DNA from: a virus
Taxonomy: Duplodnaviria; Heunggongvirae; Uroviricota; Caudoviricetes
Length of the DNA stretch: 14,003 bases
Direction: 5' to 3' (one strand)
IMG/VR virus record: IMGVR_UViG_2778261395_000005
Each line of letters begins with the position of its first letter. The stretch's first letter is position 1. Below the pieces are notes generated by a model. The model searched no databases. It had not been told where the DNA came from and was given only the letters and a program-made list of their open reading frames with translations. A program made the translations under genes and the position numbers. Positions 2,965-3,687 of the stretch are shown in pieces.

Positions 2965-3249
2965 TTATTCATTGCCGATATTCACCTTTATCGCGAACAC
3001 CTTTACCGGTTTATCGCCGAAGTGCGGATGTGTGATTGTCTTGATTTCATATCCGTCATACGGAACATCAATTCTACGGCTGGAATCGTCGCGCTTCGGA
3101 TATCCCTTTGTGATAATCAGGCGGTCATACTCCCGGAACATAATTCGCTTATTCCAGTAGTCATTACACAAGCGATACTCTTCCGTTTTCTCTCCGCGAA
3201 TCATTGCATCGAAGTATTCACCTTTGACGGCAAGTTGCAGGTTAGCCAC
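2965..3249 (-). CDS. ASCH-domain-like small protein, 94 aa, GTG start
   Basis: GTG at 3249-3247 preceded by a strong AGGAGG SD (6-nt spacer); translation contains RGEKTEEYR, which fits the ASCH signature GxKxxExR; overlaps the upstream ORF by 8 nt. Confidence 0.6.
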   Translation of the reverse strand: MANLQLAVKGEYFDAMIRGEKTEEYRLCNDYWNKRIMFREYDRLIITKGYPKRDDSSRRIDVPYDGYEIKTITHPHFGDKPVKVFAIKVNIGNE

Positions 3250-3526
3250 GACCTTCCTCCTTTGGCTTGTGAATTTGTATCGTCATGCCGCTTTGAGTGG
3301 TGACTACAATGACAGAACCAGGCTGAAGGCTGTTAAGATTGAATGCTTCGTAAAACGAATCCAAGGCTAGTGCTTTTTTATTCTTTCGGTTCCACCAACG
3401 CCATCCCTTGCCACATGCTACACTGACAATCCACTGTCCACTCCTGTAAGCCATATAAAACCAGATGAGCAAAACCTGAAGGGATGCCATCCAGTCAATA
3501 ATCGTATATTTCGCGAAGGAGTCCAT
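3242..3526 (-). CDS. Hypothetical membrane protein, 94 aa, one predicted N-terminal transmembrane helix
   Basis: ATG at 3526-3524 overlaps the upstream stop (TGATG); AGGAG 8 nt upstream; hydrophobic segment IIDWMASLQVLLIWFYMAY; 8-nt overlap with the downstream ASCH-like ORF. Confidence 0.5.
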   Translation of the reverse strand: MDSFAKYTIIDWMASLQVLLIWFYMAYRSGQWIVSVACGKGWRWWNRKNKKALALDSFYEAFNLNSLQPGSVIVVTTQSGMTIQIHKPKEEGRG

Positions 3527-3687
3527 CACTTCATCTCCTGCGGCGGCTCTGGTAGCGGCATCCATCTGATTACATCGCAATCACGTAGGCTGATGTCATC
3601 TCCAAGCCATCCTTGACCTTCAGACCAGCATTGCACGTAATACCCGCCTTCGGCGTCAACTACGCACCACTGCGCGTCGTTCGGCAT
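3526..3687 (-). CDS. DUF551-like phage protein, 53 aa from the first ATG, probably 5'-truncated
   Basis: C-terminal …RWMPLPEPP is the characteristic DUF551 ending; the domain-like sequence (WLSCSERMPND…) starts upstream of the first in-frame ATG with no alternative start codon, suggesting loss of the native 5' end. Confidence 0.5.
   Translation of the reverse strand: MPNDAQWCVVDAEGGYYVQCWSEGQGWLGDDISLRDCDVIRWMPLPEPPQEMK

Follow-up and report, generated by a model that had tools for sequence, protein, structure and literature searches.

We suggest that the three small minus-strand ORFs at 2965-3687 of the analysed window, a stretch of 14,003 nucleotides, are very probably what is left of a lambdoid phage's early-left accessory ('exo-xis'/ea) region, from its promoter-distal end next to xis. 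In all likelihood, they represent two intact small phage genes and a truncated third, lying beside int/xis and being separately swappable cassettes joined by conserved linkers. Because such cassettes with conserved linkers do not amount to a dedicated three-gene machine, the finding is largely ordinary. Moreover, the locus is λB of the commonest protein-expression strains and has little weight for discovery: λB is long known, its ASCH-like gene, DUF4752 gene and DUF551 pseudogene are already catalogued, and the HK022 int-xis record in GenBank already lists the terminator.

The λB prophage and its deletion joint

Over 3 kb, the window is a 100% match to REL606, BL21 and E. coli C, at a site between ybhC and ybhB. 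By sequence, E. coli B carries the window at attB as a 12-kb defective prophage; the 12.1-kb prophage carries the name λB (PMC4395058). The features relevant to the three ORFs are as follows.

1419-2489, minus strand: HK022/lambda-type integrase (RefSeq annotation)
2467-2685, minus strand: excisionase, xis (Pfam Exc, 3.9e-41)
2725-2892, minus strand: homologue of lambda Orf55, last gene of the exo-xis region (PHROG 676, 3.6e-39)
2905-2931, minus strand: second tandem terminator-like hairpin (8-bp stem, U-tract)
2935-2963, minus strand: predicted intrinsic terminator tL4 (9-bp stem, 4-nt loop, U-tract)
2965-3249, minus strand: intact ASCH-like gene, 94 aa, GTG start; PHROG 625, homologue of HK022 gp34
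3242-3262, minus strand: linker AAGGAGGAAGGTCGTGGCTAA, with the Shine-Dalgarno sequence and GTG of the ASCH-like gene plus the stop of any upstream gene
3242-3526, minus strand: intact DUF4752 gene, 94 aa, ATG start; N-terminal hydrophobic helix, basic stretch and small C-terminal part
3524-3564, minus strand: 41-nt linker encoding WMPLPEPPQEMK-stop, with the Shine-Dalgarno sequence AGGAGA and the ATG of the DUF4752 gene
3526-3708, minus strand: 5'-truncated DUF551 (EaA-like) pseudogene; the last ~60 codons, without native start or ribosome-binding site
3703-3710, no strand: deletion joint fusing the early-left accessory region to a 5'-truncated SfV-type Rz gene
3711-4055, plus strand: 5'-truncated SfV-type Rz gene containing Rz1/'lysC' (Pfam LysC match)

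In intact phages, the gene order, as taken from HK022, HK106 and L030, is an EaA/Ea22-type DUF551 gene, DUF4752, the ASCH-like gene, tL4, orf55, xis and int. The int-xis region has 96-98% DNA identity to HK022 and HK106. The Orf55 homologue, whose HK106 counterpart is annotated as similar to lambdap35, carries W9, N43, R45 and E47, i.e. the residues discussed for lambda Orf55 (PMC8614690). As proposed in the preliminary description, the ORFs end at a hairpin followed by a U-tract, and this site corresponds to tL4 of HK022: the 9-bp hairpin at 2963-2942, followed by TCTTTTAT, aligns column for column with the HK022 'tL4 terminator' (X51962 positions 2417-2445) with one loop mismatch. The second hairpin is placed at 2931-2912, and both hairpins together have -27.3 kcal/mol (z = -4.5). 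tL4 comes after the ASCH-like gene in 103 of 126 loci.

By contrast, the first ORF (3526-3687), originally taken as an intact gene, is 5'-truncated. DUF551 (PF04448) matches the mechanical ORF at 3526-3897 with 41 bits (cut-off 22; 3.5e-10) over residues 63-120 and profile positions 1-68 of 68, and the WMPLPEPP motif reported for this ORF is present inside the match. This match begins upstream of the ATG at 3687, and the product of that ATG reaches only profile positions 22-68 of 68. DNA homology to the intact L030 gene (95% over 309 nt) ends at 3708-3710, intact DUF551 proteins have 127-141 aa with the equivalent of Met 3687 being internal (SERMPNDAQ), and RefSeq annotates the ORF as a pseudogene without N-terminus. 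Two starts were considered and rejected, i.e. ATG 3687 as the internal Met of the intact gene and GTG 3897 as lying beyond the deletion joint and antisense to the Rz/Rz1 remnant. On the right-hand side, homology to the Rz-Rz1 genes of SfV/SfII/SfIV begins at 3703-3710. The deletion whose joint lies at 3703-3710 begins within the DUF551 gene, whose 5' part it took, and ends midway through the Rz spanin gene, with all that lay between being lost; it is the removal of this 5' part that makes the ORF a pseudogene.

On the missing segment, one would expect the promoter pL and N as well as the genes for immunity, replication and lysis; with pL gone, the two intact genes would have lost their native promoter. 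Nothing upstream of 3708, the expected place of pL, survived the deletion, a scan of 2300-5000 on both strands gave no sigma-70-like promoter versus 3.8 expected by chance, and the locus sequence is identical across all B-lineage genomes among the matches listed. We therefore regard it as an even call whether both intact ORFs are untranscribed leftovers in E. coli B that are intact only because the deletion is recent. However, both ORFs are unbroken and encode proteins 95-99% identical to phage alleles, and the stretch from the minus-strand gene at 4354-4902 down to the ORFs has no terminator-like site, so that read-through from this gene could lead to expression of both ORFs in E. coli B. Transcriptional silence would concern activity in E. 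coli B only and is compatible with the ORFs being cassettes of an exo-xis region.

The ASCH-like and DUF4752 proteins

In agreement with the preliminary description, we found no experimentally established function for any of the three genes in databases or the literature. PHROG families 625, 667, 60 and 924 are all listed as 'unknown function', and a search of NCBIfam gave none of the three ORFs a useful model. The literature searches returned no paper joining exo-xis and ASCH, none with either RefSeq protein accession and none on DUF4752, while titles and abstracts on ASCH with anti-defense or prophage contained nothing on the ASCH-like family.

The GxKxxExR motif described for the last ORF is found at residues 19-26 as the octapeptide G19-E-K21-T-E-E24-Y-R26; the ASCH octapeptide is defined as G-X-K-X-X-[ETS]-X-R (PMC9599836). 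Among 68 ASCH-like homologues with 40-78% identity, K21 is invariant while G19, E24 and R26 are at least 90% conserved. Thus, the assignment to ASCH stands for the motif and, as predicted, at the level of the fold, but profile searches did not bear it out. PF04266 scores 14.3 bits against a threshold of 21.2 (E 0.068) and covers residues 6-28 only, and five of the 68 homologues match the model at E <= 0.01. A PDB sequence search with the single protein returned no ASCH chain, and a PDB search with the 68-sequence family profile returned none at E <= 10. Similarly, hhalign of the family against an approximate YqfB sequence aligned only the 16-residue motif region, without significance (E 0.11). 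A PUA-like beta-barrel, nearest to the solved ASCH structures, holds only by structure prediction.

In YqfB, the catalytic residues are Lys21, Thr24 and Glu74 (PMC9599836). Lys21 is kept in the ASCH-like protein, and position 74, matched by sequence number only, is a His. Because at least 90% of the family have Glu where YqfB has its Thr nucleophile (position 24), we rejected a YqfB-type N4-acetylcytidine (ac4C) amidohydrolase. Tentatively, an RNA or a (modified) nucleoside or nucleotide is the probable ligand, and perhaps the substrate for hydrolysis, of the single-domain ASCH-like protein; in the predicted structure, the candidate site would likely be a cleft lined by K21/E24/R26, the conserved GYP (49-51) and H74.

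The ASCH-like gene is under strong constraint (pN/pS 0.07 across 96 distinct phage alleles), and its family (PHROG 625) comprises 752 clusters at 50% identity. Besides temperate lambdoid phages, the family is present in virulent Jerseyviruses and in phages of Ralstonia, Brucella and Acidovorax; both a Jerseyvirus and the Ralstonia phage RSA1 carry the gene amid unrelated early genes. A search for domain fusions gave 10 longer proteins with no informative Pfam partner and one sub-threshold reverse-transcriptase match. Because it is found in temperate as well as virulent phages and across several bacterial orders, the protein may act alone and early in infection. We consider it rather improbable that the family is a distinct PUA-like branch with its own catalytic set (K21, E24, R26, H74, GYP) and an early role directed at host RNA or at modified nucleosides or nucleotides. 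If this were true, the protein could, e.g., remove or sequester a modified base or a signalling nucleotide, and the slot before tL4, which in HK106 is occupied by a TGT-like gene, would be a hotspot for nucleic-acid-modification genes. The family is widespread, strongly conserved and still without function and is, therefore, a reasonable though not urgent target for biochemistry.

The middle ORF falls in PHROG 667 and matches DUF4752 (PF15944) over profile positions 2-84 of 84 (5.6e-36; 122.9 bits versus a threshold of 27). Previously described as having a single transmembrane helix, its product is better described as a small protein with a probable membrane helix, for which a single transmembrane pass is plausible. 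The Kyte-Doolittle 19-residue maximum of 1.46 at residues 8-26 (1.71 in a homologue) is near the usual cut-off of 1.6, the basic stretch GKGWRWWNRKNKK comes after the hydrophobic segment, and AlphaFold places a helix at residues 5-48 in a model of low confidence (pLDDT 66). Homologues and the Pfam alignment begin at ATG 3526, and TTG 3580 was rejected as a start. Among 5.8 billion proteins, the family has only 47 clusters, of which every named one is enterobacterial, and it is almost confined to enterobacterial phages; its pN/pS is 0.17 (61 distinct phage alleles). The low pN/pS values of this ORF and of the ASCH-like one mark both as real genes. With low confidence, we infer that the DUF4752 protein serves enterobacterial lambdoid and P22-like phages as a small accessory protein in its own right, anchored in the membrane.

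Portable linkers and the association of the genes

Both overlaps of stop and start codons noted earlier are present: at 3528-3524, TGATG joins a stop and the next start, and 8 nt overlap at 3249-3242 (GTGGCTAA). Homology to 69 loci starts exactly at 3564, and the 41-nt linker was found after more than 10 different DUF551 cores and at least three non-DUF551 proteins. At the other junction, GGAGG-N7-(G/A/T)TG-GCTAA is common to 35 distinct ASCH-like junction contexts, and the upstream partners differ. In each case, the linker consists of the gene's own Shine-Dalgarno sequence and start plus the last residues and stop of the upstream gene (PQEVK-stop or PQEVNRG-stop), and the portable linkers CAGGAGGTtAAccGTGGCTAA and CAGGAGGTGAAGTGATG turn up again next to a wide variety of unrelated genes upstream. 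As judged by these sequence comparisons, the overlaps are not partner-specific and sit in linkers at the 5' end of each gene; by the same comparisons, cassettes are gained, lost and exchanged at the linkers. The linkers would give generic translational coupling along a long early transcript and would also supply homology for cassette shuffling. Because the overlaps lie in portable linkers, stop/start overlaps in lambdoid early operons should not be taken as a sign that neighbours work together. This make-up of the linkers may or may not have been described earlier for these genes.

The distribution of the genes was analysed in loci that are mostly near-identical E. coli and Salmonella prophages, and the counts, therefore, do not represent independent events. 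Among the 78 IMG/VR loci with the ASCH-like gene (best 80 of 504 matches), DUF4752 is upstream in only 20 and lacking in 58. Conversely, among the 75 loci with DUF4752 (best 80 of 172 matches), 26 are without a downstream ASCH-like gene, and in 20 of these tL4 directly follows DUF4752, giving a clean cassette-sized difference. In the remaining 49 loci, the ASCH-like gene is directly downstream with the identical 8-nt overlap. Given this 65% adjacency among DUF4752 loci (best 80 of 172 matches), a functional link between DUF4752 and the ASCH-like protein is possible.

A pair formed by a membrane-anchored DUF4752 and the ASCH-like protein, e.g. with the PUA-like protein being recruited to the membrane and DUF551 being an unrelated neighbour, would account for this adjacency and would fit with purifying selection on both genes. 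We nevertheless consider such a pair unlikely: the ASCH-like gene, present in Jerseyviruses and in Ralstonia, Brucella and Acidovorax phages, is approximately six times more widespread (332 versus 57 GenBank phage records), every strong match to DUF4752 is in an E. coli or Salmonella phage record, and the ASCH-like gene is cleanly missing from the 26 loci mentioned. In addition, DUF4752 is paired with other genes in HK106, in which the TGT-like gene has the ASCH slot, and in phage SPN1S, in which a distant DUF4752 is in a different operon and adjoins an Eaf gene.

The overlapping codons and shared terminator are real, some of the lambdoid prophages carry the trio again with one DUF551 variant or another, and a position next to int/xis is typical for accessory genes, but the suggestion in the preliminary description that coupling makes the three genes one functional module for host takeover, exclusion or anti-defence, with products acting together, is highly improbable and already largely refuted by co-occurrence, because the first gene here is a truncated pseudogene, most DUF551 cores upstream of DUF4752 are only 30-40% identical to the one here and sometimes not DUF551, the ASCH-like gene usually occurs without DUF4752, the overlaps are generic linkers and PADLOC defence models gave no match to any ORF at E <= 0.01. 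Overall, the co-occurrence comparison gave highly varied upstream partners and, in the loci analysed, no sign of an association of the three genes beyond their shared location.

Comparison with known systems

The exo-xis region of lambdoid phages is pL-driven, early, auxiliary and highly mosaic (PMC10834534; PMC8614690). In lambda and Stx phages, it comprises orf61, orf63, orf60a, orf73, ea22, ea8.5 and orf55, and the λB region is similar to it in position, from the recombination genes to xis, in orientation, with an Orf55 homologue adjoining xis, and in likewise consisting of small early auxiliary genes that are highly mosaic. Variant 2 of Ea22 has DUF551 as its C-terminal domain (PMC10834534; PMC8614690). 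However, the λB region has been severed from its promoter by deletion, lambda itself is without an ASCH-like gene and without DUF4752, and these two are not among the genes studied in the experimental exo-xis literature that we found. In HK022, gp34 (AF069308) is 95.7% identical to the ASCH-like protein; its gp35 is a 'P22 EaA C-terminal half' (DUF551) gene with an 8-nt overlap with gp34, and its tL4 (X51962) is ~97% identical in sequence; HK022 differs in that DUF4752 is absent from the junction of its DUF551 and ASCH-like genes.

With ASCH proteins (PF04266), for instance E. faecalis 3iuw, P. horikoshii PH0355, E. coli YqfB and Z. mobilis ZmASCH, the ASCH-like protein shares a predicted PUA-like beta-barrel, a single domain of ~100 aa and an N-terminal strand-helix-strand unit with G-x-K-x-x-[ETS]-x-R in the YqfB register (K21, R26). 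By contrast, it is below the Pfam threshold and has no significant profile match to solved ASCH structures, it differs from YqfB in having Glu and not Thr at position 24 such that the nucleophile is missing, and it has conserved motifs of its own, GYPK (49-52) and THPHFG (73-78).

In lambdoid mosaicism, as in the comparisons of HK97, HK022 and HK620, exchange takes place at gene boundaries, and short conserved sequences flank the cassettes. The boundaries in λB share these traits and differ in that the linker is seen to include the last codons and stop of the upstream gene together with the ribosome-binding site of the downstream gene.

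The λB remnant and its deletion joint

From 2400 to 5400, the window matches the chromosomes of E. coli B REL606 and BL21, E. coli C and related strains at 100% identity, and the REL606 equivalent of the window comprises ybhC, a prophage remnant and ybhB, i.e. the lambda attachment site. The element is named the λB prophage (12.1 kb) in a BL21 genome paper and is common to the B lineage (PMC4395058). RefSeq already labels the three minus-strand ORFs considered here as ASCH domain-containing protein, DUF4752 family protein and DUF551 domain-containing protein pseudogene, the last with its N-terminus missing. 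Both the locus and its gene families had been catalogued before, and an annotation of the terminator existed as well.

Features of the prophage remnant
2725-2892, next to xis: 55-aa ORF, orf55 homologue (PHROG 676); its counterpart in HK106 carries the annotation "similar to lambda p35" (= Orf55)
2965-3249, minus strand: ASCH-like ORF
3242-3526, minus strand: DUF4752 ORF
3526-3687/3708, minus strand: DUF551 ORF
3703-3710: deletion joint, DUF551/EaA-like gene joined to a 5'-truncated SfV-type Rz gene
3711-4055, plus strand: "lysC" ORF (Pfam LysC match), the Rz1-like lipoprotein gene embedded in Rz
4354-4902, minus strand: 182-aa ORF (PHROG 30882), divergent, adjoining the small terminase gene
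7098-7859, plus strand: RefSeq pseudogene "anti-CBASS protein Acb1 family", matching Pfam Phage_portal_3 positions 6-207 of 357 (1e-55)
8805-9830, minus strand: Acyl_transf_3 acyltransferase gene, right half of the remnant
11598-12773, minus strand: Acyl_transf_3 acyltransferase gene, right half of the remnant

The DUF551 ORF is a truncated pseudogene. The motif WMPLPEPP and a DUF551 profile match bear out its earlier assignment to DUF551, but the gene is not intact, its N-terminus being truncated at 3708-3710. DNA similarity to intact relatives ends there (95% over 309 nt in the related locus L030 and 92% in the related locus L026), and on the other side similarity to Rz/Rz1, the spanin genes in SfV, SfII and SfIV, begins at 3703-3710. 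Because similarity breaks off from both sides, we place the deletion joint at 3703-3710. A mechanical ORF reaching 3897 spans DUF551 profile positions 1-68, with the match starting at ~3711; the minus strand upstream of 3710 is antisense to the lysis genes and lies outside the DUF551 gene. An ATG start at 3687 was rejected: the resulting 53-aa product spans only profile positions 22-68 of 68, and the matching Met is internal in the intact L030 gene (127-141 aa; …GWISCSERMPNDAQW…).

Through the deletion, the middle of the lysis cassette is fused to the early-left accessory region. The missing interval would hold pL and N together with the genes for immunity, replication, Q, holin and endolysin; the annotation of the remnant shows none of these. 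The operon would thus have lost its pL end. A scan for sigma-70-like promoters on both strands of 2300-5000 gave none (3.8 expected by chance), and the stretch separating the three ORFs from the minus-strand gene at 4354-4902 showed no terminator-like site. In E. coli B, the two intact genes may be either silent or transcribed by read-through.

Elsewhere in the remnant, the pseudogene at 7098-7859 looks like a truncated portal gene, marking a second deletion joint near 7859, and the two acyltransferase genes may be surface-polysaccharide-modifying cargo. For the 182-aa ORF, searches of Pfam, NCBIfam, PADLOC and PDB sequences gave no match; its LYRGE, CWTTD and GENEF motifs are spaced in a way that may resemble the R-S-E motifs of ADP-ribosyltransferases.

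Coupled ORFs, terminator tL4 and the exo-xis context

What the preliminary description had observed in the sequence is mostly right. On the minus strand, the TGA stop codon of the DUF551 ORF (3528-3526) overlaps the ATG of the DUF4752 ORF (3526-3524) to give the claimed TGATG, and the TAA stop codon of the latter (3244-3242) falls inside the ASCH-like ORF, which starts with GTG (3249-3247), resulting in the claimed 8-nt overlap. Shine-Dalgarno sequences precede both starts, AGGAGA ahead of the ATG and AAGGAGGAAGG ahead of the GTG. Compared with distinct alleles in other phages, pN/pS is 0.07 for the ASCH-like ORF (96 alleles) and 0.17 for the DUF4752 ORF (61 alleles). At the sequence level, both ORFs are real and intact genes.

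The claimed hairpin and U-tract are also present (2963-2942, 9 bp, four bases past the last stop codon). A further hairpin follows at 2931-2912, and the two jointly fold at -27.3 kcal/mol (z = -4.5 vs shuffles). In the HK022 int-xis record X51962, the "tL4 terminator" at 2417-2445 corresponds to the first hairpin plus U-tract with one loop mismatch and comes immediately 3' of the ASCH-like gene gp34 (95.7% identity); among related loci, tL4 is located 3' of the ASCH-like gene in 103/126. By this match, the first hairpin is the known terminator tL4. Between orf55 and xis (2719-2732) there is a separate perfect 5-bp GC hairpin (CCGCC-ATCA-GGCGG); it has T-runs on both strands and could be a bidirectional terminator-like element.

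For Orf55 of lambda, the product of the last exo-xis gene, residues W9, N43, R45 and E47 have been discussed (PMC8614690); the 55-aa ORF carries all four. With an Orf55-like ORF beside xis, the three ORFs therefore lie at the xis-proximal end of the exo-xis region, which is pL-driven, very early in expression and dispensable and is known to modulate the lysis-lysogeny decision; the same paper notes that Ea22 variant 2 and YfdS have DUF551 as their C-terminal domain (PMC10834534). Our literature search found no paper combining "exo-xis" with "ASCH".

Co-occurrence of the three genes and linkers at their junctions

The tight coupling had been taken to suggest joint action of the three genes. Comparison across IMG/VR loci and GenBank phages argues against this. 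The IMG/VR loci used are those matches that scored best, a highly redundant set. Among the DUF4752-anchored loci (best 80 of 172), 75 have enough downstream sequence: the ASCH-like gene follows with the same overlap in 49/75 and is absent in 26/75. In 20 of these 26, tL4 lies directly 3' of DUF4752, which is a clean cassette-sized difference. Among 78 ASCH-anchored loci (from the best 80 of 504), DUF4752 is present in only 20 and missing in 58; DUF551 is upstream without DUF4752 in 22, abutting the ASCH-like gene in 13 of these, and in 36 the DUF551 and DUF4752 queries detected no upstream neighbour. Neighbours in those 36 include divergent DUF551-type, Ea22-like coiled-coil, 72-aa, zinc-ribbon and TraR/DksA-like proteins.

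Among individual phages, HK022 is without DUF4752, and in HK106, which has DUF4752, the position of the ASCH-like gene is taken by a TGT-like gene (locus L162, 3051-3851, between DUF4752 and orf55, annotated as "queuine tRNA-ribosyltransferase"). Two nucleic-acid-modification-related folds, ASCH-like and TGT-like, therefore alternate at one cassette position. The distant DUF4752 gene of SPN1S lies after replication genes and adjoins an Eaf gene, and the ASCH-like gene lies among unrelated early genes in a Jerseyvirus and in RSA1. In GenBank, 332 phage records contain the ASCH-like gene, including virulent Jerseyviruses and Ralstonia P2-like, Brucella and Acidovorax phages.

The junctions themselves are conserved. 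Upstream of the ASCH-like gene, 35 distinct contexts carry …CAGGAGGTTAACC-GTG-GCTAA or AAGGAGGAAGGTC-GTG-GCTAA. The stop of any upstream gene is the TAA within ASCH-like codons 2-3, and the ASCH-like ribosome-binding site encodes the final residues of that gene's product (…QEVNRG or …EEGRG). Upstream of DUF4752, the junction reads …CCGCCGCAGGAGGTGAAGTGATG. It is preceded by >10 DUF551 cores unrelated to one another and by three or more proteins outside DUF551, each with PQEV(M)K or PQEVN at its C-terminus. Similarity of the window to 69 loci starts precisely with the W codon of WMPLPEPP (3564), so that this motif, besides being the C-terminal motif of DUF551, belongs to a linker at the DNA level. 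The 41 nt at 3524-3564, conserved at the nucleotide level behind very different upstream genes, appear to be a recombination linker also holding the ribosome-binding site of the next gene.

These linkers explain tight coupling without functional partnership: each carries the translation start signals of the next gene and offers a homology patch where, as we infer, cassettes can be exchanged. Exchange at linkers agrees with lambdoid mosaicism in general and with the published view of the exo-xis region as highly mosaic (PMC8614690).

The DUF4752 and ASCH-like proteins

In the earlier interpretation, the domain identities are partly right; the conclusion drawn from the coupling is wrong. Profile searches gave Pfam matches for DUF4752 and DUF551, while the ASCH assignment lacks sequence-profile support.

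The DUF4752 ORF is a full-length family match (PF15944, 5.6e-36; PHROG 667). The family is very narrow, with 47 clusters among 5.8 billion proteins, all named ones from E. coli or Enterobacter, and 57 GenBank phage records, every one an E. coli or Salmonella phage; a literature search found no publication on it. Residues 8-38 are hydrophobic (Kyte-Doolittle 19-residue maximum 1.46, and 1.71 in a homologue) and are followed by a basic, aromatic stretch (GKGWRWWNRKNKK), a pattern that suits a protein anchored in the membrane near its N-terminus, with the C-terminus in the cytoplasm. In the AlphaFold model, a long helix (5-48) and a small helix-plus-hairpin tail are predicted at low confidence (pLDDT 66). 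Given the borderline hydropathy and this low-confidence model, the single membrane helix is plausible, and we guess that the product is a small accessory protein of the inner membrane. In prophages, this gene is frequently in decay. Several of the copies in P0297, P0309, P0312 and phage records H103-H107 (Stx2 phage 86 group) are frameshifted or broken up into two tblastn pieces, and in many database entries just the C-terminal half is present (cf. PHROG 16281).

For the ASCH-like protein, the motif and the predicted structure support the ASCH assignment, whereas sequence profiles do not. The Pfam ASCH match is below cut-off (14.3 vs 21.2 bits, residues 6-28 only), NCBIfam gives no match, a family profile retrieves no ASCH chain among PDB sequences, and among 68 diverse homologues Pfam reaches E <= 0.01 in just 5 (ASCH) and 2 (DUF3850). 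The family comprises 752 representative clusters in an exhaustive search. In an alignment of 68 of these (40-78% identity), K21 is invariant and G19, E24, R26, W32, R35, G49-Y50-P51, G66, H74 and F77-G78 are >=90% conserved. G19-x-K21-x-x-E24-x-R26 is the ASCH octapeptide G-X-K-X-X-[ETS]-X-R in the register of YqfB Lys21/Arg26 (PMC9599836). The AlphaFold model is confident (pLDDT 92.3, pTM 0.81); its top 11 Foldseek matches in the PDB are all ASCH (best E 0.025), and similar viral models are named DUF3850, ASCH, "activating signal cointegrator" or "putative RNA-binding protein". Our conclusion, from structural similarity scores that are moderate, is that the protein is probably a PUA-like barrel of the ASCH type, on a divergent branch. 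Fusion partners and defence-model searches gave no functional hint. We suggest only tentatively, and with low confidence, that it works on its own early in infection, binding RNA or nucleosides or acting as a hydrolase. Compared with the ac4C amidohydrolase YqfB, the K21/R26 register is common to both, but the Thr24 nucleophile of YqfB is absent, and because of this we rejected ac4C amidohydrolase as an identity for the ASCH-like protein.
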